Made by a program: the position numbers and the translations under genes
Notes under the pieces: generated by a model
The model's database searches: none
The model's input: only the letters and a program-made list of their open reading frames with translations
What the model was told of the DNA's origin: nothing
Assembly: GCA_021788015.1 (NCBI GenBank)
Contig: JAJYLD010000001.1
Coordinates: forward strand, 209,581 to 273,580
Source: a bacterium
GTDB lineage: Bacteria > Patescibacteriota > Patescibacteriia > Patescibacteriales > JAKAJF01
DNA: 64,000 nt
Direction: 5' to 3'
Shown: positions 856-56,602 of the stretch, piece by piece
Position numbering within the stretch: position 1 is the stretch's first letter
Layout of the letters: every line of letters starts with the position of its first letter

Positions 856-956
856 ACGAATCCTGTTAAGGGGTGACTCCAGCGGGATTGGATTTATTTT
901 TTAAGAATTAATCTATGCGGATCAAATTTTTTTGATTGCGATCTGCTTCTAACGGG
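856..956 (+). repeat. SCAIR element (start-codon-abutting inverted repeat), short form, copy 1
   Basis: The left arm ACGAAT-CCTGTTAAGGGG (856-873) is imperfectly complementary to the right arm TCTGCTTCTAACGGG (942-956). The right arm ends one base before ATG 957. The 3' part TTTTTGATTGCGATCTGCTTCTAACGGGATGAAA closely matches 44713-44745. Confidence 0.7.
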
Positions 957-14874: not shown

Positions 14875-14903
14875 TTGTCATGACACACGAAATATGATAA
14901 AAT
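14875..14903 (+). promoter_or_regulatory. Sigma-70-type promoter upstream of SCAIR copy A
   Basis: TTGTCA (14875-14880), a 17-nt spacer ending in TGa, then TAAAAT (14898-14903). Confidence 0.5.
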
Positions 14904-14925: not shown

Positions 14926-15247
14926 ATGGATCCCGTTGGAAGCCGCGATCGCGCTTCCGGGGGGAGAATAAGAATAACCAAGAGAATCTAAAGATATAAT
15001 TTAGGCGGCTATGCAATATATCTTTTTGATCGCGATCCCGACACCGCAAGTCCTATCGGATTCGGCCACGGGACAAGTTCTGCCGCACAAAATTTATTAT
15101 TAACCACGTCTCGCCCCGTAGTCACCGAATTTACGAGGCGTACCCCGTTAGAAATCTTTGGGATAAACCAAAGTAGAAATTTTTTCAAGGACATATCAGT
15201 CCGGATGGAACTTCTAACGGGGTGTACTACAGGGGCATTCTAACGGG
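14926..15247 (+). repeat. SCAIR element, long form, copy A (carries a nested small copy)
   Basis: The left arm is ATGGAT-CCCGTTGGAAGC (14926-14943) and the right arm CATTCTAACGGG ends at 15247, before ATG 15248. The core from TTGATCGCGATCCCGA onward aligns with 49522-49665 and 54048-54188. Confidence 0.8.
15143..15222 (+). repeat. Nested mini-SCAIR inserted in the core of copy A
   Basis: CCCCGTTAGAA (15143-15153) is complementary to TTCTAACGGGG (15212-15222). It interrupts GAGG-TGTA-CTAC, which is contiguous in copies B and C, and is flanked by CGTA on the left and TGTA on the right. Confidence 0.7.
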
Positions 15248-16501
15248 ATGGATAATGAAACAAAAAAATTTGGGAAACCGATCATAAGGACGATTATCAT
15301 AATCGTTCTTATGTTATTGAGTTTCGGCGCGGGACTTTATCTTCCGGGGAAAAGCGAAGTAATGCGCAATCTGTCCGCGAACGAGGCGGAATACGCCGGC
15401 AAAGTTTTAGGCCAATACGGCTTGCCGCCTGGCGGAACGATTTCCAACGATGTCAATTTCAACATGTTTTGGGATGTTTGGGACGCTCTAAAAAGCAAGT
15501 ACGTCGACCATAATAAATTAAGCGACAAGGAGATGTTTTATGGCGCTTTAAAGGGGTTGGCGGAGTCGACGGGAGATCCCTATACAGTTTTTATGGACCC
15601 CAAAGACGCCCAGAGTTTTTCAAATGATTTGGCCGGGACTTTTGAAGGCATCGGAGCCGAAATTGGAATCAAAAACAATATTTTAACCGTTGTTTCTCCT
15701 CTTGCCGGGTCGCCCGCGGACAAGGCGGGTCTTAAAGCGGGAGATAAGATTTACGCCATTAACGACGTTTCGACGGCCGGCATTTCCGTGGACGACGCGG
15801 TAGCGGAAATTCGCGGCCAGAAAGGCACGACGGTAAAATTAACCGTAATTCGCGAAGGCGTGGACAAACCCATGGATTTTGAAATTACCCGGAATACGAT
15901 TATCGTAAAGAGCGTTGATACGAAAATGGATAAGGGAATTTTTGTCATAACCATAAACAGTTTTAATGACGATACCCAGGATTTATTCGATAAAGCCGTG
16001 GAAGACGCCGTAAAAGCGAAACCGAAGGGAATCATTCTTGATTTAAGGAATAACCCGGGCGGGTACTTGGAAACTGCCATTGACGTGGCCAGCGCCTGGA
16101 TAAAAAATGGAGTCATCGTGACAGAAAAATTTTCCGACACGAAAAAGACGGATTTTCAAGCCAAGGGCGTGGCTCCTTTGGACGGTTATAAAACGGTCGT
16201 TCTTGTCAATCAGGGCAGCGCCTCCGCGTCGGAAATCGTCGCCGGAGCGTTAAAAGACGACGGCAAGGCAACTCTGGTCGGAGAAAAAACTTTCGGCAAA
16301 GGTTCTGTCCAGGATTTGGAAGATTTGCCGGACGGTTCGGAATTGAAAATAACCGTGGCGAAATGGCTGACTCCGAAAGGATACAACATCAATGAACAGG
16401 GGATAGAACCTGACGTCAAAGTGGACTTAACGCAAAAAGATTACGACGCGGGCAAAGATCCGCAAATGGACAAAGCGATTCAAATCATTAACCAAAAATA
16501 A
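15248..16501 (+). CDS. S41 family C-terminal processing peptidase
   Basis: N-terminal TM, a PDZ region (GIGAEIGIKNNILTVVSPLAGSPADKAGLKAGDKI), LDLRNNPGG, and the catalytic GSASASEI ... KTFGKGSVQ. Confidence 0.9.
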   Translation: MDNETKKFGKPIIRTIIIIVLMLLSFGAGLYLPGKSEVMRNLSANEAEYAGKVLGQYGLPPGGTISNDVNFNMFWDVWDALKSKYVDHNKLSDKEMFYGALKGLAESTGDPYTVFMDPKDAQSFSNDLAGTFEGIGAEIGIKNNILTVVSPLAGSPADKAGLKAGDKIYAINDVSTAGISVDDAVAEIRGQKGTTVKLTVIREGVDKPMDFEITRNTIIVKSVDTKMDKGIFVITINSFNDDTQDLFDKAVEDAVKAKPKGIILDLRNNPGGYLETAIDVASAWIKNGVIVTEKFSDTKKTDFQAKGVAPLDGYKTVVLVNQGSASASEIVAGALKDDGKATLVGEKTFGKGSVQDLEDLPDGSELKITVAKWLTPKGYNINEQGIEPDVKVDLTQKDYDAGKDPQMDKAIQIINQK

Positions 16502-20606: not shown

Positions 20607-20634
20607 TTGACACAATTTATTGTCATGGTATAAT
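20607..20634 (+). promoter_or_regulatory. Sigma-70-type promoter with extended -10 for the Fe-S operon
   Basis: TTGACA (20607-20612), a 16-nt spacer ending in TGg, then TATAAT (20629-20634). Confidence 0.65.
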
Positions 20635-20663: not shown

Positions 20664-20748
20664 ATACATCCCGTCAGAAGTCGTCGCTTTTGCGGGGTAA
20701 AAATTATTTTAATTTAGGCAGATTAATTAGAAGTCTGCTTCTAACGGG
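20664..20748 (+). repeat. SCAIR element, divergent short copy
   Basis: The left arm CATCCCGTCAGAAG (20667-20680) is complementary to the right arm CTTCTAACGGGATG, which ends at and includes ATG 20749. The right side carries the 19-mer GTCTGCTTCTAACGGGATG, identical to copies B and C. Confidence 0.7.
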
Positions 20749-21150
20749 ATGAAATTTTCGACAAAATCCACGTATGGCCTAAGGGCCATGATCAGGCTGG
20801 CGGAAAATTGGAAAAAAGAAAGTTTATCCTTATCGGTAATCGCAAAATCGGAAAACATTTCGCAAAAATACCTTGAAAGAATATTTGCTAGGTTAAAAAC
20901 AGCAAAATTGATCGAAAGTGAAAAGGGAGCGGGCGGCGGATATAAATTATCAAGATCTCCTTCTAAAATAAATATTTTGGAAATTATCGATGCATTGGAA
21001 GGAAAATTCGCGCCGTTTCATTGTTATACAAAAAGCGGAAAGGTTGTTTGTAGCACTTCCTGTAATTGCGGAGTTACTTTGGTTCTTAACCGCATTCAAA
21101 CCGGAATCGAAGATTCCTTAAGAAATATGAGCCTAAACCAGTTAAAATAA
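20749..21150 (+). CDS. Rrf2 family transcriptional regulator (IscR-like)
   Basis: MKFSTKSTYGLRAMIRLA winged-helix N-terminus, with C-terminal Cys residues (HCYTKSGKVVCSTSCNC). It lies at the head of the IscU/Nfu/desulfurase genes. Confidence 0.85.
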   Translation: MKFSTKSTYGLRAMIRLAENWKKESLSLSVIAKSENISQKYLERIFARLKTAKLIESEKGAGGGYKLSRSPSKINILEIIDALEGKFAPFHCYTKSGKVVCSTSCNCGVTLVLNRIQTGIEDSLRNMSLNQLK

Positions 21151-22184: not shown

Positions 22185-23423
22185 ATGAAACATATCTATT
22201 TCGACCATAGCGCCACCACGCCGGTGGATGGAAAAGTGCTCGCGGCCATGATGCCGTATTTTTCAAAGACTTACGGGAACCCCTCATCGATTCATAACTT
22301 TGGGCAAAACGCGGTCATGGCGGTGGATGAAGCGAGAGAAAGTGTCGCCAAATTTTTGAACTGCGTTCCGGAAGAAGTAATTTTCACTTCGGGATCTACC
22401 GAATCTGACAATTTGGCCATTCGCGGAGCGATCAAGGCTTTGTTAAAAAAAGGCGTAAAAAAACCGCACGTTATCACGACGACGATTGAGCATCCCGCCG
22501 TTTTGGAACCGTGCGCCGAATTGCAACGCGGAGGCGTCGAGGTTACATATTTAAAAGTGAAACCGAACGGTGTCATTGCTTCGAATGATTTAAAAAAAGC
22601 GATAAAAGACAGTACTGTCCTAATTTCCGTGATGTACGTGAACAGTGAGGTGGGTAGCATTCAACCGATCAAGGAAATCGGCAAAATGATCAAAAAAATA
22701 AACGAGAACCGTTTCAAAACCTGGCGCGAAGCCGATCTGAAAACTCGCGGCGATAAACCGATGCCGATTCTTTTTCATACCGACGCGACTCAAGCGCTAA
22801 ATTTTTTGGATTGTGATGTGCAAAAAAACAATATTGATTTACTAAGCATGTCCGGCCATAAAATCTATGGTCCAAAAGGAGTGGGAGCGTTATTTGTTAG
22901 GACCGGAACCCCGCTTCGCGCTTTGCAGCTTGGCGGCCATCACGAGAATAATTTCAGGAGCGGGACATTGAACGTCACGGGGATCGTCGGTCTCGGAGCC
23001 GCCGTCCGGGAATTGTCGCGGAAAAAAGTCGATGTCAATAATAAAAAAATCGCGAGACTGAGAGACACTTTGGTCAAGGGAATTATGAAAAATATTCCCG
23101 ATGTCGTTTTGAATACGGACAGAGACAACGCGACGCCTTCCCACGCCCATTTTTCCTTTCTCGGAGTTGAAGGGGAGTCGGCTTTGATTTCTCTGGATCT
23201 GGCTGGTATCGCGGTTTCGACCGGTTCGGCTTGCGCGTCCGGAAGTTTAAAACCATCTCATGTGCTTCTGGCCATGGGGATAAAGCAGGAAGTCGCCCAT
23301 AATTCGATAAGGTTTACTTTGGGGAAAAACAACACGATGGAAGAAATAAAAAAAGCGATAAAAGTTTTACCGCCGATTATACGAAAATTAAGAAAAATGA
23401 ATCCATTAAAAAAAGCGGAATAA
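22185..23423 (+). CDS. Cysteine desulfurase (NifS/IscS class I)
   Basis: MKHIYFDHSATTP, SGHKIYGPKGVGALF (PLP lysine) and the catalytic loop STGSACASG. Confidence 0.93.
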   Translation: MKHIYFDHSATTPVDGKVLAAMMPYFSKTYGNPSSIHNFGQNAVMAVDEARESVAKFLNCVPEEVIFTSGSTESDNLAIRGAIKALLKKGVKKPHVITTTIEHPAVLEPCAELQRGGVEVTYLKVKPNGVIASNDLKKAIKDSTVLISVMYVNSEVGSIQPIKEIGKMIKKINENRFKTWREADLKTRGDKPMPILFHTDATQALNFLDCDVQKNNIDLLSMSGHKIYGPKGVGALFVRTGTPLRALQLGGHHENNFRSGTLNVTGIVGLGAAVRELSRKKVDVNNKKIARLRDTLVKGIMKNIPDVVLNTDRDNATPSHAHFSFLGVEGESALISLDLAGIAVSTGSACASGSLKPSHVLLAMGIKQEVAHNSIRFTLGKNNTMEEIKKAIKVLPPIIRKLRKMNPLKKAE

Positions 23424-23437
23424 ATTCCGCTTTTTTT
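23410..23437. terminator. Bidirectional intrinsic terminator
   Basis: AAAAAGCGGAAT-AA-ATTCCGCTTTTT overlaps the desulfurase stop, between convergent genes. Confidence 0.75.
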
Positions 23438-23714
23438 AATGGAACGGATTGTTCAAACCGTCGATGTTACGAATGTATGTTTTTTGGTTTATTTTTTTTA
23501 TTATACCGTTGAATTTATTTATATCGAAAGTTTCGGTGGCGACTTCATTTTTTAACACCAAAACAATTTCAGATTGCGTAACCGATTCGTAAAAATTATT
23601 ATAAAGAAAGATGACGTCGAAATACAAAACGAAAATTATAAGCAAGACCAAAAGAAAATAAGTCGCCCCAGAAATTTTTCGGAATGAAATTTTTATTTTC
23701 CCCGCTATACGCAT
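23436..23714 (-). CDS. Small membrane-anchored protein at the distal end of the pilus operon
   Basis: 92 aa with one N-terminal TM (ATYFLLVLLIIFVLYFDVIFL). Its ATG directly follows a SCAIR right arm. Confidence 0.55.
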   Translation of the reverse strand: MRIAGKIKISFRKISGATYFLLVLLIIFVLYFDVIFLYNNFYESVTQSEIVLVLKNEVATETFDINKFNGIIKKINQKTYIRNIDGLNNPFH

Positions 23715-23807
23715 CCGTTAGAAGCGGATTTCAATCATTTTTGATTATACAAATCCGCATAAATAATGATTAAATTTTATCCCGGTCGAAGCGTGCTTCT
23801 AACGGGG
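23715..23807 (-). repeat. SCAIR element, short divergent copy on the minus strand
   Basis: Read on the minus strand: CCCCGTTAGAAGC (23807-23795) ... CCGCTTCTAACGG (23727-23715), immediately followed by ATG (23714-23712). The internal hairpin is GCGGATTT/AAATCCGC. Confidence 0.7.
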
Positions 23808-43059: not shown

Positions 43060-44598
43060 ATGGCGATAATCTTTATTTTTTTGCTTATTTTGGTCGCTTC
43101 CGTCTTCACTCCCCAGTATATTTTATTTTTATTGGTTCTAAATCTTTTCGCCGGACTTTTTCTGTCTCTCTCCCAAATAATAATCGCTTTGCTGCCGCAC
43201 GCAAAGCCTCTTCATAAACAATTGAATTCGCAACCGTTCGTTTCGATTTTCGTTCCCGCCTATAACGAACCTCCAGCGATTTTGATGCAAACGCTGGAAA
43301 CCCTTTCAAAATTGAGATATGACAATTTTGAAGTTTTGGTCATAGACAATAACACCGAAGATCCGGATATTTGGAAACCGGTGGAAGCGTTTACAAAAAC
43401 GCTCGGAGAAAAGTTTCGTTTCTTTCATGTCGATCGCCTTTCCGGTTTTAAAGCCGGCGCGCTCAATTACCTTATAAAATACATGGAAAAGAAATCGGAA
43501 TATGTGGCCGTAATCGACGCCGATTATCTCGTCCATTCCTATTTTTTGACAACCGCTTTGTCATATTTCACGAATAAAGACATAGCTCTCGTGCAATTTC
43601 CGCAGCAATACCGCAATCGCATCAAAAAGAATCAGGCCATAGCCGACGAATACAGACATTTTTTCGGTATTTACATGAATATGGCCAATCATCTCGACTG
43701 CGTTCCCTCGACCGGTACCGTAAGTATTTATAAGTCGAACGTTTTGCGCCAAATCGGCGGTTTTCGGGGCGAGGCGCTTACGGAAGACGCCGATATCGGA
43801 CTTAGAATTTACGGAGCGGGTTATCGCGGGATATTTGTCGACCGACCGATCGGTTACGGTTTGATGCCTTACGACCTTGAAGCTTACCGGAAGCAAAAAT
43901 GGAGATGGGCGTTCGGAAACGCGCAATCGATAAAAACTCTTTTTTCTCTGTTTGGGAAAATTCCGTTCAGGTCCTGGCTAGGATTTCTTATCCATCTTAC
44001 GGCATGGGATCATTTGAATTTCTTACCATTCGCCGTTTTGGCCGCTTATTCCGTCGTTTTGCTGCCGAACATTCCGGTAACGCCCACGCATAGGCTTCTG
44101 CTTGAAATCGCTTCTTTGTCGATTTTTGTCACCTTGATATCCAAATTGATTCTTATTCGAGTGGCTTTGCGGAACCAGCCGAATTCTTTATCGCGTTCTT
44201 TGCGGGCTTTCGGAGTCCATATCGGCATGACTTTTTTGTATTCCGAAGCATGGCTTACCTATATTCTGCGCATGAAATTCACTTTTGAACGAACAAACAA
44301 ATTTATTTTTGCGAAAATGCCGAGCCTTTTGAAAAATTCGTACAAAGAGCTTGTCCTGGGATTATGGTTTTTGATCGGGATGGTTGAGGCTATCTTCTGG
44401 GGTACAAGAATAATAACGGTCGTCGCTTATTTTGTCTCGTCGATAATTTTATTTTCCGTTTACTACGTGTATTGGAAAATTTATCCGACAAAATCATATT
44501 CGAAAAAAATATTTGAAAACACGGAAAAGAAATATCTTCCTTATATCAAGTCAACGACTCACAATGTAAATTACGAATTAACCGAAGCAAGATTATGA
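43060..44598 (+). CDS. Membrane-embedded processive GT2 synthase (cellulose/chitin/hyaluronan-synthase-like)
   Basis: N-terminal TMs, a GT-A core (VIDNNTED, DADY, TEDADIG), then the QxxRW motif (RKQKWRWAFGN) followed by about six TM helices. Confidence 0.8.
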   Translation: MAIIFIFLLILVASVFTPQYILFLLVLNLFAGLFLSLSQIIIALLPHAKPLHKQLNSQPFVSIFVPAYNEPPAILMQTLETLSKLRYDNFEVLVIDNNTEDPDIWKPVEAFTKTLGEKFRFFHVDRLSGFKAGALNYLIKYMEKKSEYVAVIDADYLVHSYFLTTALSYFTNKDIALVQFPQQYRNRIKKNQAIADEYRHFFGIYMNMANHLDCVPSTGTVSIYKSNVLRQIGGFRGEALTEDADIGLRIYGAGYRGIFVDRPIGYGLMPYDLEAYRKQKWRWAFGNAQSIKTLFSLFGKIPFRSWLGFLIHLTAWDHLNFLPFAVLAAYSVVLLPNIPVTPTHRLLLEIASLSIFVTLISKLILIRVALRNQPNSLSRSLRAFGVHIGMTFLYSEAWLTYILRMKFTFERTNKFIFAKMPSLLKNSYKELVLGLWFLIGMVEAIFWGTRIITVVAYFVSSIILFSVYYVYWKIYPTKSYSKKIFENTEKKYLPYIKSTTHNVNYELTEARL

Positions 44599-44739
44599 AT
44601 TCCATTAGAAGCTCAGCCGGAAACGGACGAGCGCGATTGCTTCGTTGGAAAGACAATAGAAATAAAAAATAAAGGATTAAAGATTAACTCGAGCGGATAA
44701 GCAGTTCAAACTTTTTGATCGCGATTCGCTTCCAATGGG
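44595..44739 (+). repeat. SCAIR element, short form, with compensated arm variants
   Basis: The left arm is ATGAAT-TCCATTAGAAGC (44595-44612) and the right arm GCTTCCAATGGG (44728-44739) ends before ATG 44740. The internal TTTTTGATCGCGAT matches the start of the long-form core. Confidence 0.7.
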
Positions 44740-45777
44740 ATGAAAATAGCTCTCCTTGCTCCGCTTTGGAAAAAAATTCCTCCCGAGAAATACGGCGGAT
44801 CGGAATTGGTTGTCGCCAATTTGGCAAAAGGATTAACCGAACTCGGGCATGATGTGACAACCTTGGCCTGCGGCGGATCAGAAGTATCCGGCAAACTTAT
44901 TCCTGTTATTGAAAAGCCGATGTATGATCTCGTTGGCGGTTTCGATTGGAGCGGAATCAAGCAATATGAATTTTTGTCTTTTTTTGAATTGGGCAAGCGA
45001 ATAAAAGATTTCGATATCGTTCATAACCACATGGGTTTTCATCCAATCGCTCTCGCTCCGTTTCTGGATATTCCGTTTGTCACGACGCTCCATAGCAGTT
45101 TGCCGCCGGATTTTCCGTTTTTGGCCGAAGCTTTTCGCGAATATCCGTTTGTCTCAATCAGCGAGGCGCAAAGAAGATTGGCGCCAGACTTGAATTATGT
45201 CGGAACGGTATATCACGGCATCGACGTGAAATCCTTTCGGCCGCGACCTGATGGCGACGGGAACGGTTTTGTCTTTATGGGCACCATGTCTCGCAATAAA
45301 GGCATCGATATCGCGGTCAAAGCCGCTCGCGCGCTCGGAGTAAAATTGACTATCGCGGGAGAAATAAGAGAAAGCGACGGGTCCTTTCTTGAAAAGGAAG
45401 TTTTTCCCTATGTTGACGGGAAAAACATACAACTTGTCGGAGAAGTCGATCATGAAGAAAAAAATCGTTTGTTTGCCGAGGCCGACGGCGTTCTTTTTCC
45501 ATCACGCTGGAACGAAGCCTTCGGATTGGTTATGGCGGAGGCGCTCGCTTGCGGCACGCCCGTTGTTGCGCTAAACAACGGAGCGGTTCCGGAAGTTATT
45601 AGAAACGGAAAAACGGGTTTTATCGTCGAAAACGAGCGGGAATTCACGGAAGCGATGGAAAAAGTCGGCAAAATTTCAAGAGAAGTTTGCCGCTCCGAAG
45701 CGGAACGGCGCTTCGATATTTCCGCGATGGCGGAAAATTATGATTACGTATATAAAAAATTAATCCAAACAAAATGA
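44740..45777 (+). CDS. Glycosyltransferase family 4
   Basis: MKIALLAPLWKKIPPEKYGGSELVV, and C-terminal PSRWNEAFGLVMAEALACGTPVVA. Confidence 0.85.
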   Translation: MKIALLAPLWKKIPPEKYGGSELVVANLAKGLTELGHDVTTLACGGSEVSGKLIPVIEKPMYDLVGGFDWSGIKQYEFLSFFELGKRIKDFDIVHNHMGFHPIALAPFLDIPFVTTLHSSLPPDFPFLAEAFREYPFVSISEAQRRLAPDLNYVGTVYHGIDVKSFRPRPDGDGNGFVFMGTMSRNKGIDIAVKAARALGVKLTIAGEIRESDGSFLEKEVFPYVDGKNIQLVGEVDHEEKNRLFAEADGVLFPSRWNEAFGLVMAEALACGTPVVALNNGAVPEVIRNGKTGFIVENEREFTEAMEKVGKISREVCRSEAERRFDISAMAENYDYVYKKLIQTK

Positions 45778-49348: not shown

Positions 49349-49402
49349 TTTTTTCTCAGCCAGATTTTATGTCCCGGTTCTGTTTGACGGATTGCAAGAA
49401 TG

Positions 49403-49432
49403 CCTCAAATTATGTTAAAATAAATTCATGAA
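49403..49432 (+). promoter_or_regulatory. Sigma-70-type promoter with extended -10 just upstream of SCAIR copy B
   Basis: TTGCAA (49403-49408), an 18-nt spacer ending in TGt, then TAAAAT (49427-49432). The predicted start lies within a few nt of the element's left edge at 49439. Confidence 0.55.
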
Positions 49433-49438
49433 TCCCGT

Positions 49439-49665
49439 TTTAGAAGCCGCGGTAGCTTTCACGGGAAGAATAGGTCTGATGTGAAATAAATTAAAATTTT
49501 TAACTTAGCAGATATAAATCAAATTTGATCGCGATCCCGATACAACAAATCCTGTCGGATTTGGCTACGGGACAAGTTCTATCGCACAAAACTTATTTTT
49601 AACCACGTCTCGCCCCGTAGTCACCGAGTTCACGAGGTGTACTACGGGGGTCTGCTTCTAACGGG
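49439..49665 (+). repeat. SCAIR element, long form, copy B
   Basis: The left arm is ATGAAT-CCCGTTTTAGAAGC and the right arm GTCTGCTTCTAACGGG ends at 49665, before ATG 49666. The core at 49522-49665 is nearly identical to 54048-54188. Confidence 0.8.
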
Positions 49666-51129
49666 ATGAATATCACCATTGATTTTAGCGCCATAAATAA
49701 TTTCTTAAACCAGCCGCTCGGCCCGTTGATGTGGCAAATTTTTTATACGATAGGATGGATTCCCGCCGTTTTTATCATGCTTTGGGGATTCAAGGAAATG
49801 TGGGTTGAGTATATACATAATCGTTGGGCGGGAGCGCAGAAAAAGATTTTATTGGCCATAGACATACCGCGCGGCAATACGCAATCTCCGCGAGCGGTCG
49901 AGAATATGTTCGCTTACCTCGCCGGCGCTCATGGCACCATCAATTTGGTTGAAAATTATTGGGAAGGGAAAATCCAGCTTTCTTTCAGCTTTGAAATCGT
50001 CAGCATAGACGGATATACTCAGTTTATAATCCGCACGCCCGAAGTTTTTCGCCATCTTGTCGAAACCGCGATTTATTCGCAATATCCGGACGCGGAAATC
50101 ACGGAAGTGAACGACTATATCGAAGGCATGCCGAAGAAATTCCCGGACGAAGAATACGACATGTGGGGGACGGAATTCATTCAGGCGAAAAACGAGGCCT
50201 ACCCCATTAAATTATATACGGAATTCGAGCACCAGATGGGCCCGGTGGAAACTTTTTATCGCGATCCCATGGCGGCATTGATGGATTTGTGCAGCAGTTT
50301 GCGCAAGGGGGAACAGCTTTGGTTCCAGATTATCGTCAAGCCCATCGACATGAACGAGTGGACAAAAATAGGGGACAAGGAGGCGGCGAAAATATTAAAA
50401 GAGAAGCCGGCGGAAGCCAAAGGAATTCTGCCTGGCATCGAAAAGGGTTTTTTTGGATTCTTTTCCGTATTGAGCGATATGATGGGATCCATGTTCGGCT
50501 ATGCTCCGGCGGAAAAGCAAAAGGAAGAAAAAAAGGATGAATCTCTCAAGATGATGCAGTTGAAACCGAAGGAGAGGAAACAGGTCGAGGCCGTTCACGC
50601 CAAAATTGGGAAAATCGGCTTTCATTGCAAATTTAGGTTTGTCTATATCGCGAAAAAGGACGTTATGAACAAACCGAAAGTCGTAAACGGTTTCGTGGGC
50701 TTCATGAAACAATTCGCGGCCATGGATTTGAACAATTTAAAACCGGATATGAAAAAAACCGCCACATCCGTTCATTATTTTTTTAAAAACTATCGCTTAA
50801 ACGGAAGGAAAAAAAGAGTAATAAGAAACTACATTGCCAGGGACGGAGGCAAAGGAAGGAAAATGGGTATTTTCACGACAGACGAATTGGCGACAGTTTG
50901 GCACTTCCCGGTCGAAAGCGTGGTCAAAGCCCCGATGATCCAGAAAGCGCCGGGAAGAAAGGCGGAGCCGCCATCAAGCCTTCCCATCGATATCGAACCG
51001 GCAAGCGAAGCCGTCTTCGAGCCGCGATTCCGAGAAGAAGTTCTCGGTCAAAAACCGAAGCAGATGCAGGAAGAAAAAATAAAAGAAGAAGAAAAAGGTT
51101 CGCCGCCGGACAATTTACCGTTTATTTAG
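49666..51129 (+). CDS. Hypothetical membrane-anchored protein, partner of the downstream TraD/VirD4-like ATPase
   Basis: 487 aa. One N-terminal TM (LMWQIFYTIGWIPAVFIMLWGF), a large soluble body and a Lys/Glu-rich C-terminus. No family recognised. Confidence 0.6.
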   Translation: MNITIDFSAINNFLNQPLGPLMWQIFYTIGWIPAVFIMLWGFKEMWVEYIHNRWAGAQKKILLAIDIPRGNTQSPRAVENMFAYLAGAHGTINLVENYWEGKIQLSFSFEIVSIDGYTQFIIRTPEVFRHLVETAIYSQYPDAEITEVNDYIEGMPKKFPDEEYDMWGTEFIQAKNEAYPIKLYTEFEHQMGPVETFYRDPMAALMDLCSSLRKGEQLWFQIIVKPIDMNEWTKIGDKEAAKILKEKPAEAKGILPGIEKGFFGFFSVLSDMMGSMFGYAPAEKQKEEKKDESLKMMQLKPKERKQVEAVHAKIGKIGFHCKFRFVYIAKKDVMNKPKVVNGFVGFMKQFAAMDLNNLKPDMKKTATSVHYFFKNYRLNGRKKRVIRNYIARDGGKGRKMGIFTTDELATVWHFPVESVVKAPMIQKAPGRKAEPPSSLPIDIEPASEAVFEPRFREEVLGQKPKQMQEEKIKEEEKGSPPDNLPFI

Positions 51130-53108: not shown

Positions 53109-53213
53109 AAAATGTCTAAATTATAATTTCCAATTTCTAAATTTAGGAATTGGGAATTTTATTAGACCTTATAATTTAGAAATTAGAAATTTTTGTCATT
53201 ACTCTCGCCTATT

Positions 53214-54017
53214 ATGAAAATCAAAGCCAGTTTACATATTCATACCAAAGAAGATAAAAAAGAGGGTTTTTTTATAAGCTACTCGATTTATGATTTAATT
53301 GATCATGCGAAATTGTTAGGCTTCAGGGTCTTGGCCTTGACGACCCATAAAACTTTTGTTTATAAGGAAGAGTACGGAAAGTACGCGGAAGAGAAAGGCA
53401 TTTTACTAATCCCCGGAATCGAACTTGATATGCATGCGCCGTTTTTAAAACGATGCCATATTCTCGTTTTAAATTGCGAAAAAGACATCGAGAAAGTAAA
53501 AACATTTTCTGATCTGAAAAAATACAAAAAAAAGAATCCGAAAATTTTTATCATCGCCCCTCATCCCAATTTCGACTATTTCAATTCGATGGGCATGCGC
53601 AATTTGAAAAAATATATCGGACTTTTTGACGCGATCGAACATTCTTGGTTTTTTTCAACATTCTTGAATTTTAACAGACGCGCGGGAAGAATCGCAAAAA
53701 AATTCAAAAAGCCCTTTATCGCCACGGCCGATTGTCATACCCTTGATTTTTTCAATTCCGATTACATAACCCTTGACTTAAAAAAAATGGACGCCGATTC
53801 CGTATTCAAAAAATTAAGAGAAAGAAAGTTTGAAAATGTGACCAAACGAAAAAAATTCTTGAAAATAATTTTTTATTATCTTAAAGAATTTATCTTTAAA
53901 TATTACGGATTGCTTTTGATCGTAAAAATTAAGAACATTTTAGAAAAAGATACGAATCCCGTTAGAAGCCGCGATCGCTTTAATGGGGAAAAAATAAAAC
54001 ATGAAAAAATTTCATAA
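53214..54017 (+). CDS. PHP family metal-dependent phosphoesterase
   Basis: The ATG at 53214 gives MKIKASLHIHTKED (HxH motif), with later TTH, APHP and ADCH metal-ligand motifs. The last 22 codons run through the left arm of SCAIR copy C. Confidence 0.7.
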   Translation: MKIKASLHIHTKEDKKEGFFISYSIYDLIDHAKLLGFRVLALTTHKTFVYKEEYGKYAEEKGILLIPGIELDMHAPFLKRCHILVLNCEKDIEKVKTFSDLKKYKKKNPKIFIIAPHPNFDYFNSMGMRNLKKYIGLFDAIEHSWFFSTFLNFNRRAGRIAKKFKKPFIATADCHTLDFFNSDYITLDLKKMDADSVFKKLRERKFENVTKRKKFLKIIFYYLKEFIFKYYGLLLIVKIKNILEKDTNPVRSRDRFNGEKIKHEKIS

Positions 54018-54188
54018 TAATATGCAGATTATAGAATCAAAATTTTTTTTGATCGCGATCCCGATACAACAAATCCTGTCGGATTTGGCTACGGGACAAG
54101 TTCTATCGCACAAAACTTATTTTAACTACGTCTCGCCCCGTAGTCACCGAGTTTACGAGGTGTACTACCGGGGTCTGCTTCTAACGGG
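53952..54188 (+). repeat. SCAIR element, long form, copy C
   Basis: The left arm ACGAAT-CCCGTTAGAAGC lies inside the 3' end of the PHP gene, and the right arm GTCTGCTTCTAACGGG ends at 54188, before ATG 54189. Confidence 0.8.
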
Positions 54189-55745
54189 ATGGATTATCTA
54201 AAAATTGGAAAAGCCACGGATCTCGATGGCGGGGATAAAAAATTATACCGGTTTTTGGAAATTCTTCCCGGCTCGCTTTCCTGGGCGACTTTAATCATTT
54301 TAACTTTGGCATCTTATCTCTGGCCGGTATGGGCGGCTTATTTTATTATCGCCTTTGACGTTTATTGGCTCTTATTGGTCGCTTTTCTTGGAATTCATTT
54401 GATTGTCAGTTATCGCAAATTGACGCAAAACAAAAAAGTGAATTGGGAAAAGGAATGTGAAAAAATCGATCTTTCCGATTCCGGTTTCAGTTTCGATTCC
54501 TGGCGAGACGTTTATCATCTCATAATTTTCCCGACCTATAACGAGAGCCTGGAAATTATCCGCCCCAGCATAGAAAGCGTTTTAAACGACGGCTATCCTT
54601 TGGATAAAATTATTCTGGTTTTGGCGATTGAAGAACGCGGCGGTCCCGAAGCTTTGGAGCGCGCGAAAACGATCGAGCGAGAATACGGAAATAAATTCGG
54701 ACATTTTTTAATTACCACCCATCCCGATGGAATTGTCGGAGAACTTAAAGCAAAGGGCGCGAACCAAGCATGGGCGGCCCGAGAGGTCAAAGAAAAAATT
54801 ATCGACAAAGAGGGGATCGATTACGATCGTATACTTGTGAGCGTTTTTGATATCGATACGATTGTGGATAAAGGTTATTTTTTCCGTCTGACCCAAAAAT
54901 TTTTAACTTCAAAAAATCCTTATCGCGCCAGTTATCAGCCGGTTCCTGTTTATTTCAACAATCTTTGGGAAGCGCCTTTTTTCGCGCGCGTGGCCGCATC
55001 CTCGAACACTTTTTGGCAAATGATGCAACAGATCAGGGAAGAAAAATTGGCGACGTATTCATCTCACTCTATGACATGGAAAGCTTTGGTTGAAATAGGA
55101 TTTTGGTCGACAAGTATGGTTAGCGAGGACTCAAGAATTTTTTGGCATTGTTTTTTGTATTATAACGGCGATTATCGAGTGGAACCGCTTTATTTTCCGG
55201 TATCGATGGACGTTACCATGGATGAAAGCTTTAAAAAAACCATGATCAATTTGTACAAACAGCAAAGGAGATGGGGCTGGGGCGTGGAAAATTTGCCCTA
55301 TCTTATGTTTAATACGATAAAAAGATGGAAAATTTTGCCAAAAAAAGGAAAAATGATCAATCGCATTTCGGTTCAACTTTATGGATTTCACTCCTGGGCG
55401 ACAAACGCCCTTATTATCGGTATTATCGGTTGGTTTCCCGTTCTTCTTGGGGGGGGGCGGTTTAATTCCACCGTGCTCTCCGGAAATTTACCTTATATAA
55501 GTCGAACGTTAATGACCTTGGCTATGGGCGGCATGGTTTTATCGGCCGTCGTTTCAACATTGCTTTTGCCCGAAAGACCGAAAAGATACGGATTTATAAA
55601 AAATATTATCATGTTTTTTCAATGGTTGATTCTGCCATTGAGCATAATTATTTTCGGATCCATCCCCGGGTTGGAGGCGCAGACTCGCTTGATGTTGGGC
55701 AAATATATGGGTTTCTTTGTTACGCCGAAAGCGAGAAAAAGTTAG
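54189..55745 (+). CDS. Membrane-embedded GT2-like synthase with a QxxRW motif
   Basis: N-terminal TMs, a GT-A-like core (IIFPTYNESLE, VFDIDT, SEDSRIF), YKQQRRWGWG, and C-terminal TM helices. Confidence 0.75.
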   Translation: MDYLKIGKATDLDGGDKKLYRFLEILPGSLSWATLIILTLASYLWPVWAAYFIIAFDVYWLLLVAFLGIHLIVSYRKLTQNKKVNWEKECEKIDLSDSGFSFDSWRDVYHLIIFPTYNESLEIIRPSIESVLNDGYPLDKIILVLAIEERGGPEALERAKTIEREYGNKFGHFLITTHPDGIVGELKAKGANQAWAAREVKEKIIDKEGIDYDRILVSVFDIDTIVDKGYFFRLTQKFLTSKNPYRASYQPVPVYFNNLWEAPFFARVAASSNTFWQMMQQIREEKLATYSSHSMTWKALVEIGFWSTSMVSEDSRIFWHCFLYYNGDYRVEPLYFPVSMDVTMDESFKKTMINLYKQQRRWGWGVENLPYLMFNTIKRWKILPKKGKMINRISVQLYGFHSWATNALIIGIIGWFPVLLGGGRFNSTVLSGNLPYISRTLMTLAMGGMVLSAVVSTLLLPERPKRYGFIKNIIMFFQWLILPLSIIIFGSIPGLEAQTRLMLGKYMGFFVTPKARKS

Positions 55746-56350: not shown

Positions 56351-56407
56351 AGCAACCATTTTCGTTATTGCCGAAAGTTACATGGGTGCCCCGCCTGCCA
56401 TCGCCAA

Positions 56408-56478
56408 AGCCCTCTGTCAGAATCGAACTGACGTATGTGGTTTACGATACCACTGTTCTGCCACTGAACTAAGAGGGC
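56408..56478 (-). tRNA. tRNA-Thr (anticodon CGU)
   Basis: Minus-strand cloverleaf: acceptor GCCCTCT/AGAGGGC, D arm GTTC-AGTGGCA-GAAC, anticodon arm GTGGT-ATCGTAA-ACCAC, T arm GTCAG-TTCGATT-CTGAC. CCA is not encoded. Confidence 0.9.
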
Positions 56479-56531
56479 TCAAGCCATGGCGGGCAAGGCG
56501 GGCGGGAATCGGTTTCTGCATCGCCGGAATG

Positions 56532-56602
56532 AGCAGGATACGAGAATCGAACTCGCGCCCTCTGCTTGGGAAGCAGACATACTGCCACTGTACTAATCCT
56601 GC
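56532..56602 (-). tRNA. tRNA-Gly (anticodon CCC)
   Basis: Minus-strand cloverleaf: acceptor GCAGGAT/ATCCTGC, D arm GTAC-AGTGGCA-GTAT, anticodon arm TCTGC-TTCCCAA-GCAGA, T arm GCGAG-TTCGATT-CTCGT, discriminator U. CCA is not encoded. Confidence 0.9.

Follow-up and report, generated by a model that had tools for sequence, protein, structure and literature searches.

The Rickettsia palindromic elements (RPEs) are small palindromic mobile elements that lie in frame within genes (Ogata et al. 2000, as summarised in PMC10969869). Like the GC-rich subfamilies of 45-99 nt described below, they inhabit reduced, gene-dense genomes and persist by being translated; they differ from the present repeats in sequence and host phylum, and the main class of the latter is situated outside genes, at start codons, with the ATG duplicated, a terminal stop codon and an upstream open reading frame (uORF). 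To our knowledge, RPEs have not been described as duplicating start codons or as carrying a stop codon or a uORF. The Correia/NEMIS elements of Neisseria are likewise ~100-150 bp long, with inverted repeats, a target duplication, no transposase and many copies (PMC10969869), and they form hairpins in transcripts, with effects on neighbouring genes; however, the target duplicated by Correia elements is TA and their distance to genes varies, whereas the elements considered here duplicate a start codon, keep a fixed orientation and have an end spaced for translational coupling. The REPINs, mobilised by RAYT, are also two-arm hairpins of ~100 nt without a gene of their own that have spread genome-wide, but they make no target duplication, are extragenic and show no association with start codons. 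Elements derived from IS200/IS605 lack terminal inverted repeats and target duplications and insert 3' of a fixed tetra- or pentanucleotide; such an origin is excluded for the present palindrome, the ends of which are inverted repeats and the target of which is duplicated, with a variable duplicate. Putative mobile promoters, that is, 5' regions shared by unrelated genes, were reportedly described by Matus-Garcia et al. in 2012, and they resemble the present elements in that the same sequence stands directly upstream of non-homologous genes; here, however, no promoter-like site was found inside the window copies, the elements show no enrichment of -10 boxes and the native promoters remain upstream. 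In the translational coupling of adjacent cistrons, a stop codon likewise lies a few nucleotides before the AUG (UAACGGGAUG) and an upstream ORF crosses a structure that masks the start; the difference from ordinary coupling is that the upstream cistron is here carried by a mobile element and installed with each insertion, the coupling itself being predicted from sequence. We know of no transposon that recognises start codons. Literature searches with the arm sequence and for MITEs, inverted repeats and leaderless genes of Patescibacteria/CPR, as well as for MITEs at start codons, returned nothing relevant from the library covered, and start codons go unmentioned in a 2024 review of prokaryotic MITEs. 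The MITE or palindromic element is a kind already known; the choice of target and the apparent translational design are, as far as we can tell, undescribed.

The window analysed here is a 64-kb stretch of patescibacterial DNA, for which the original prediction proposed seven copies of a single inverted-repeat architecture, each preceding a credible gene. This is borne out by the count of the arm GCTTCTAACGGG, which, with up to one mismatch, occurs nine times where dinucleotide-preserving shuffles give 0.18 expected occurrences and never match the observed number (0/100 shuffled windows). At all seven sites a left arm resembling CCCGTTAGAAGC is followed 79-316 nt further 3' by the right arm GCTTCTAACGGG, the last G of which is, as had been claimed, the base directly before an ATG (957, 15248, 20749, 23714 on the minus strand, 44740, 49666 and 54189). 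The genes that follow have the identities assigned to them, in order a GT4, an S41 peptidase, an Rrf2 gene, a small ORF beside pilMNO, a second GT4, a DUF8128 membrane protein and a GT2, and the 18-mer TCTGCTTCTAACGGGATG is indeed present at four of the seven sites. A covariance model built from 59 copies of other genomes and run over the window with filters off (E<0.01) recovers the seven sites and one nested copy (15144-15221), and nothing else in the window. With regard to the boundaries, the seven sites stand, but copy 6, the one on which the prediction centred, starts at 49434 (49428 with its flank) and has a 2-nt insertion in its left arm; the A(T/C)GRAT that had been taken for a conserved part of the element is the duplicated start of the downstream gene. 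The features of the seven copies are the following.

862..956, + strand: copy 1, 95-nt short form with a degenerate left arm (CCTGTTAAGGGG); right arm at 945-956, GT4 ATG at 957.
856-861, + strand: left flank of copy 1, ACGAAT, a decayed ATGAA; the stop codon of the upstream gene is at 852-854.
14932..15247, + strand: copy 2, 316-nt composite of a main element, the inner module and a nested copy.
14926-14931 and 15248-15253, + strand: flanks of copy 2, both ATGGAT, the second being the start of the S41 peptidase gene.
15144..15221, + strand: nested copy in copy 2, 78 nt, of a different subfamily with C..G ends; flanks GCGTAC/GTGTAC.
20670..20748, + strand: copy 3, 79 nt; Rrf2 ATG at 20749.
20664-20669, + strand: left flank of copy 3, ATACAT, a decayed duplicate with AGGAG just 5' of it.
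23715..23806, - strand: copy 4, 92 nt; gene-side arm at 23715-23725, without one G.
23714-23712, - strand: ATG downstream of copy 4, opening a 92-aa ORF 3' of pilO.
23738-23718, - strand: mini-ORF MIEIRF* of copy 4, which stops at the TAA of the arm.
44601..44739, + strand: copy 5, 139 nt; flanks ATGAA at 44595-44599 and ATGAA at 44740-44744 (GT4 start).
49434..49665, + strand: copy 6, 232-nt long form before the ATG of the DUF8128 gene, the subject of the original prediction.
49434-49447 and 49654-49665, + strand: arms of copy 6, the left one (CCCGTTTTAGAAGC) with the 2-nt insertion, and the right one.
49659-49661, + strand: TAA of copy 6, 4 nt ahead of the DUF8128 ATG.
49428..49433, + strand: left target duplicate of copy 6, ATGAAT, the original start codon.
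49666-49671, + strand: right target duplicate of copy 6, the start of the 487-aa gene.
49392..49421, + strand: native promoter-like site of copy 6, TTGCAA, 18 nt, TG-n-TAAAAT, ending 6 nt before the left ATG.
49536..49651, + strand: inner 116-nt module of copy 6, inserted at the bulge where the extended right arm (GATCGCGAT) gives way to CTGCTTCTAACGGG, with two hairpins.
54060-54174 and 15037-15236: the inner module elsewhere in the window, the latter split by the nested copy; also present at locus L091.
53958..54188, + strand: copy 7, 231-nt long form; GT2 ATG at 54189.
53952-53957, + strand: left flank of copy 7, ACGAAT, a decayed ATG.

The window copies are partly decayed, and at four of them the left flank has drifted (ACGAAT twice, ATACAT and ATTTAC). 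In copy 5 the same G:C to A:T change is present in both arms and the TAA is mutated to CAA, and its left duplicate overlaps the upstream GT2 gene, whose TGA stop is retained in it (ATGA). The PHP-domain gene upstream of copy 7 (53193-54017) extends ~20 codons into the element, within which a 66-aa uORF (54001-54201) overlaps the start of the GT2 gene. The inner module of 115-116 nt is near-identical in the three window copies that carry it, despite strong divergence of their 5' halves, and a Parcubacteria genome (L091) has it too. A coding insert was considered and rejected: the open frame that crosses the module has no start codon, and the length of the module is not a multiple of 3.

In general terms the repeat can be written (T)CCCGTTAGAAGC...GCTTCTAACGGG(A), with terminal inverted repeats of 12-13 bp. 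The main class is ~105-125 nt long, and its stem comprises 14 bp, made of the last two bases of the flank and the 12-mer, followed by a 4-nt bulge, A(C/T)CT, on the gene side only and then by a GC-rich extended stem of 7 bp. With one or two exceptions among ~88 copies, it is the bulged arm that is turned towards the gene (~98%). The 12-13-bp ends are invariant in 59/59 aligned copies, stem cells are paired in 98.5%, one stem position covaries between A:U (32) and G:C (19), and at one position of the 7-bp stem both arms switch together, giving A:T in 39 copies and G:C in 28. The arm-arm helix that had been proposed is in agreement with these data and with folding predictions, in which the RNA helix is far more stable than in shuffled sequences (z = -4.4 for copy 6 and -5.8 for L038) and would take in the A and U of the AUG. 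The consensus fold consists of the long stem only; no conserved structure was found in the loops, which are AT-rich and variable, and an alternative helix, GCAGAU/AUCUGC, was discarded as it lacks clean covariation.

The family extends far beyond the window. A scan of one genome per species with the pattern CTGCTTCTAACGGG, taken without the ATG, yielded at least 116 loci, of which about half are chance 14-mers in unrelated bacteria; in the other half (at least ~55 loci) a left arm lies 45-166 nt upstream, and almost all of these belong to Patescibacteria, distributed over many classes. The hosts include Saccharibacteria, Microgenomates and Paceibacteria, together with Nomura-, Kaiser-, Zambryski-, Moran-, Doudna-, Levyi-, Kerfeld-, Lipton- and Sungbacteria. 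Metagenomes scanned with the left arm CCCGTTAGAAGCCGCG, likewise without the ATG, gave at least 120 loci and at least 101 copies carrying both arms. In the viral collection, 93 loci match the 14-mer by chance and none is a complete element; with no viral contig carrying both arms, a phage feature was ruled out. Among the matches listed, the window and 241 further loci hold 168 distinct copies of 45-316 nt. The arm sequence is identical across phylum-level lineages in which the flanks differ, a pattern that, at the sequence level, fits a protein recognising the DNA ends. A search for such a protein gave no candidate in the material covered: among the 241 loci listed, MAG assemblies being prone to break at repeats, no ORF lies between two arms spaced 0.4-5 kb apart and no flanked single-copy RAYT-like gene was seen, and a Pfam scan of the 61 window ORFs detected no transposase, integrase or HUH domain. 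Where GC-rich contigs have unpaired arms, these are chance 16-mers. The integron attC class, which the original prediction had not recognised in the repeats either, is excluded by its reversed polarity (GTTAGAA...TTCTAAC here versus RYYYAAC...GTTRRRY) and by the neighbouring genes, which lie in conserved synteny and are not cassettes.

Flanks and orthologous sites point to insertion. Intact duplicates bound three of the window copies (ATGAAT at 49428/49666; ATGGAT at 14926/15248; ATGAA, followed by T, at 44595 and ATGAA at 44740). Relatives of the DUF8128 gene (~64% identity; L118-L121) keep the order MurB, sigma-like gene, DUF8128 and VirD4-like gene, and in them an extended -10 box, TGTTAAAAT, is followed after 6-7 nt by a single ATG, with no element; the promoter-like site at 49392-49421, which has a leaderless layout, is the counterpart kept in these orthologs. 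Relatives of the S41 peptidase gene beside a divergent murA (L335 and L336) similarly have one ATG and an empty site, and one S41-peptidase relative also has the promoter TATGATAAAAT. Since synteny and promoter are kept at these empty orthologous sites, the copies are insertions, and since the encoded N-termini align from residue 1, the ATG adjoining the element is the true start.

Overall, 69 of the 93 distinct main-type copies are bounded by a direct repeat of 4-6 nt, which consists of the ATG and two further bases in 56 copies, one in 8 and three in 5; the remaining 24 show little or no duplicate and are mostly decayed. The base directly left of CCCG is T in 88/93 main-type copies, and it is complementary to the first duplicated base, which, together with the variable length of the duplicate, is odd for a simple staggered cut. 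The flanks can be read either as a 13-bp repeat (T...A) with a 3-5-bp duplication or as a 12-bp repeat with a 4-6-bp duplication and an extra base; a nested copy in L043 favours the former reading, the subfamilies with C...G ends, in which the outer-left base is usually G, favour the latter, and we could not settle between the two. Nested copies have duplications of their own (CCTG, CTGCG and GTGTA(C)), and these differences indicate that the duplicated sequence itself is not fixed. The nested copy at 15144-15221 adjoins no start codon, and its deletion together with 6 nt restores the host sequence seen in sister copies. Tandem copies also occur, placed at the left ATG, and in two Nomurabacteria species (L038 and L080) the elements are ~88% identical over their full length, with both flanks unrelated. 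A conversion of GTG or TTG starts to ATG by the terminal A of the element (L018, L013 and L232) was considered and set aside, as the left copies may simply have mutated; L066, taken for another such case, turned out to lie inside a gene, in frame.

Terminal inverted repeats, target duplication, small dispersed copies without a transposase, and presence or absence at orthologous sites are the marks of a MITE, and all four are seen here. We consider it probable that the repeats constitute a non-autonomous, hairpin-forming (MITE-like) transposable element, widespread in Patescibacteria, that targets start codons and is compatible with translation. On insertion at a start codon, 4-6 nt are duplicated; the original ATG stays on the left, where it keeps its promoter or ribosome-binding context, and the duplicate, ATG with 1-3 further nucleotides, opens the gene at the right end of the element. 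Most copies of the family would persist in gene-dense genomes by being translatable rather than disruptive, and the GC-rich short subfamilies may simply be translated in frame inside proteins. Of the overall reading in the original prediction, the single family ending at a start codon is retained, and the dedicated cis-regulatory RNA class is not, as the evidence favours a transposable element.

An ATG follows 86 of the 93 main-type copies, and a long ORF (or one running to the end of the locus) opens from 84 of these 86. The original prediction had suggested tabulating the distance to the nearest start over copies in this and related genomes, and over the window and the 241 loci 129 of the 168 distinct copies adjoin a gene start (127 an ATG and 2 a GTG), 14 lie in frame inside ORFs, 24 lie elsewhere (several of them nested or composite pairings) and 1 is too near the end of its locus. 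The intergenic DNA of the window amounts to ~6.2 kb and contains ~170 ATGs on both strands, compared with ~46 ATG starts; from a sequence preference combined with the loss of gene-disrupting copies, no more than one-fifth to one-third of copies would be expected at starts. In the reconstructed empty sites (n=67), no conserved base was detected beyond the ATG and an A at +5 (57/67). A -10 box (TANNNT) stands 5-8 nt before the original ATG in 22/67 targets, with a peak at 6-7 nt, versus 9.7 +/- 2.7 in shuffled flanks, an enrichment which indicates that many targets are leaderless genes; others are starts internal to operons, including ATGA stop/start overlaps. Such near-exclusive association (129/168, in fixed orientation) suggests either that targeting follows a new principle or that an adaptive filter of unusual strength is at work. 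A more specific proposal, offered tentatively and given a little less than an even chance, is that of selfish DNA that homes to start codons, inserts after or at the first base, rebuilds the ATG and brings a coupled uORF with it, sister lineages being those that are read through. If this were the case, one superfamily would have colonised a superphylum of minimal genomes, and some machinery would be able to find start codons on DNA.

The right arm reads GC TTC TAA CGGG ATG, with the stop codon 4 nt before the start. An ORF of at least 15 codons that begins with ATG and ends at the TAA of the arm is found in 44/77 main copies (57%), versus 7.8% +/- 2.9 after shuffling of the loops (maximum 17% in 500 trials), and its first codon lies in the loop (19-24 codons) or is the original left start codon (38-39 codons; 11 copies). 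Ahead of the TAA, the median length of the open frame is 26 codons, versus 6 and 13 in the other frames; in five further copies a long ORF ends at an ATGA overlap, and in two it reads in frame into the gene. In a subfamily of eight copies (MKINIEKINNLKYQTRELIAICF and relatives), third codon positions are the most variable, and the ratio of synonymous to other changes is 62:142 in frame versus 21:175 and 26:171 in the shifted frames, an excess seen in that one frame only. No enrichment of -10 boxes was found before the ATGs of the uORFs (10 versus 7.4 +/- 2.3), and no promoter-like site was predicted inside the window copies; native promoters stay upstream of them (20607-20634, 49392-49421 and 14875-14903). 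Given promoters upstream and none inside, the full hairpin should be present in the mRNA, with the original ATG or the SD at its left foot; for copy 3, the promoter at 20607-20634, a perfect match to the consensus (12/12), would make the entire hairpin 5' UTR. Ribosomes might then translate the small ORF, melt the hairpin, stop at the UAA and re-initiate at the AUG of the gene four bases on, and the sequence arrangement suggests that such termination-reinitiation keeps the downstream gene expressed. In 26/77 main copies, including the subfamily present in the window, a uORF-poor one marked by ...GGGAAA...TTTAGCAGRT..., no long uORF was found that stops at the start of the gene or continues into it; coupling can therefore not be the whole story, and for the window copies, which lack a good uORF, our guess is that the stem may be opened by ribosomes that load at the left ATG or SD. 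The built-in stop and uORF suggest how selfish DNA can sit before essential genes in genomes with little spare DNA, and, if the coupling works, portable translation-initiation modules could be envisaged.

Among the alternatives, a dedicated cis-regulatory RNA leader, in which the helix would sequester the AUG until a trans factor or ligand opens it and the downstream genes would form a regulon, is unlikely. Such a leader would accord with the very stable long-range helix predicted to reach the AUG, with the covarying stem position and the compensated change in the arms of copy 5, and with native promoters from which the whole hairpin would be transcribed. Nevertheless, the loops have no conserved structure and Rfam gives no match (none at gathering score for the window, none at E<=10 for copy 6 and chance-level ones only for L038), in line with the original prediction, which recognised no known riboswitch or ribozyme class in the repeats. 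Twenty randomly chosen downstream genes share no common function, and they include L22, L18, ribosome recycling factor, trigger factor, MreB, MurG, pol III delta', four aminoacyl-tRNA synthetases, RNase H and an S24 (LexA-type) peptidase; being unrelated, they do not form a regulon, and, with essential housekeeping genes among them, some within ribosomal-protein operons, the element cannot abolish expression. Transposition is evident from the target duplications, from the empty sites and from the nested copies, the arms are identical across phylum-level lineages in which the flanks are not, and the same arms occur in frame inside proteins, all of which speak against such a leader. The hairpin may still have a regulatory side-effect alongside its transposon nature.

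An ordinary MITE that inserts almost at random at TNNA, and of which purifying selection leaves the harmless copies at start codons, is also improbable. The related subfamilies are indeed found wherever they do no harm, in frame or in the cleaved leader peptides of pilins, nested insertions show that the sequence of the duplicate is variable, and many targets are leaderless genes or members of tightly packed operons, in which upstream positions are mostly constrained. However, intergenic sites other than starts are several-fold commoner, yet at most ~25 of the 168 copies lie there, several of these being artefacts; moreover, the orientation is fixed in ~98% of copies, and the spacing of the TAA and the enrichment of uORFs look like adaptation to the site.

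Removal at the RNA level, whether as an intron or through nuclease processing at the foot of the stem, which would regenerate a leaderless or native mRNA, is very improbable. The direct repeats at the base of a perfect stem and the -10 boxes enriched near the original ATG would fit it, but the in-frame relatives keep open frames and lengths divisible by 3, the uORFs are under coding-type constraint, and neither a ribozyme or intron match nor a conserved core was found in the family.

These in-frame relatives are GC-rich variants with the same 12-mer ends and lengths of 45, 48, 54, 66, 69, 72, 96 and 99 nt, almost all divisible by 3. Copies inside genes had been named in advance as evidence against the original prediction; related subfamilies do occur there, in frame, while the start-codon class itself does not. 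In other genomes, 14 GC-rich copies sit inside long ORFs in frame, whereas in the main class an open frame spans only 2/85 copies; two of the three frames run without a stop through both arms. Lengths divisible by 3 together with open frames indicate that the variants are translated and not removed. The inserted peptides (e.g. PVRS...ASNG and PLEA...LLTG) have duplicated residues on both sides, as in the ID...ID duplication of an RsmH-like methyltransferase, the identity of which was judged from the motif DLGLSSDQLE, and in two pilins GFT...GFT and GYT...GYT fall exactly at the prepilin cleavage motif. The variants add 17-41 residues to proteins, leader peptides of pilins included. The elements could also mark strain-level population genetics of uncultured Patescibacteria, and the public gene calls of two window genes begin 21 codons too late, just after such elements.

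Three of the copies of the element in the window, a MITE-like hairpin with inverted-repeat arms abutting a start ATG, carry an inner module of 115-116 nt consisting of two hairpins:
49536-49651, inner module of the copy ending at ATG 49666
54060-54174, inner module of the copy ending at ATG 54189
15037-15236, inner module of the copy ending at ATG 15248, split by a nested 78-nt element (15144-15221)
The insertion point, GATCGCGAT^CTGCTTC, is identical in the three copies; between the copies at 49666 and 54189, the inner module is about 97% identical, despite strong divergence of the 5' halves of these two copies. Positions 1-113 of L091, a locus from a Parcubacteria genome, match about 80% of the module, and Rfam holds no match for it. 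Possibly, the inner module is a mobile element in its own right, with the bulge of the first as its target. Further small palindromes are nested within elements at other loci (L170 249-528; L027 5180-5308; L036, L054, and L196); one is a hairpin of about 170 nt with the ends GAGACGGTTACAAAA, and other nested inserts are short, of the CCTGCCGGCAGG type, and adjoin the left arm. At L070, L009, L137, and L196, two or three elements stand in tandem, separated only by ATGAAT or ATGAGT, which suggests that the remaining original ATG, the left copy of the duplicated start codon, was targeted a second time.

The elements also touch coding sequences. The reading frame of the PHP-domain gene (53193-54017) upstream of the copy at 54189 enters the element about 20 codons before its stop; therefore, the insertion replaced or extended the C-terminus. 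On the gene side, the public calls P0001 (466 aa; window 49666) and P0122 (396 aa; window 15248) start 21 codons 3' of the element-abutting ATG, and orthologs of both proteins align with the longer forms from residue one; the public starts are probably systematic mis-calls beside the hairpin. GC-rich relatives of the element, of 54-99 nt, are inserted in frame within real proteins:
L086, 3937-4001 and 4478-4542
L001, 2404-2471
L102, L112, L061, L010, and L062
Two of these lie precisely at the prepilin cleavage motif G|FTLLE, where the added residues would leave with the cleaved leader peptide.

At window 49413-49430, the ATG is preceded by an extended -10 box at a distance of 6-7 nt, as is the start of the DUF8128 gene in L118 and L120; this is a leaderless-mRNA layout. 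This layout appears to be common in these genomes: a -10 box precedes the ATG at 22 of the 67 target sites in other loci, and SD-like motifs are rare (8/67). In the subfamily lacking the small internal ORF (including the copies at 957, 20749, 23714, 49666, and 54189), GC(A/G)GAT is conserved 15-25 nt 5' of the extended right arm. Its complement, AUCUGC, is made up of the bulge and the arm, with no clean covariation between the two motifs.

The remainder of the 64-kb window contains no mobile-element genes; its genes relate to the cell envelope, type IV pilus, cell division, and glycosylation. Other features are:
20607-20634, perfect sigma-70 consensus (TTGACA, 16 nt, TG-n-TATAAT) upstream of the copy at 20749 and the Rrf2 gene
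23402-23443, minus strand, terminator-like hairpin (stem of 19 bp) beyond the end of the small ORF that follows the copy at 23714
56407-56479, minus strand, tRNA-Thr(CGU)
56531-56602, minus strand, tRNA-Gly(CCC)
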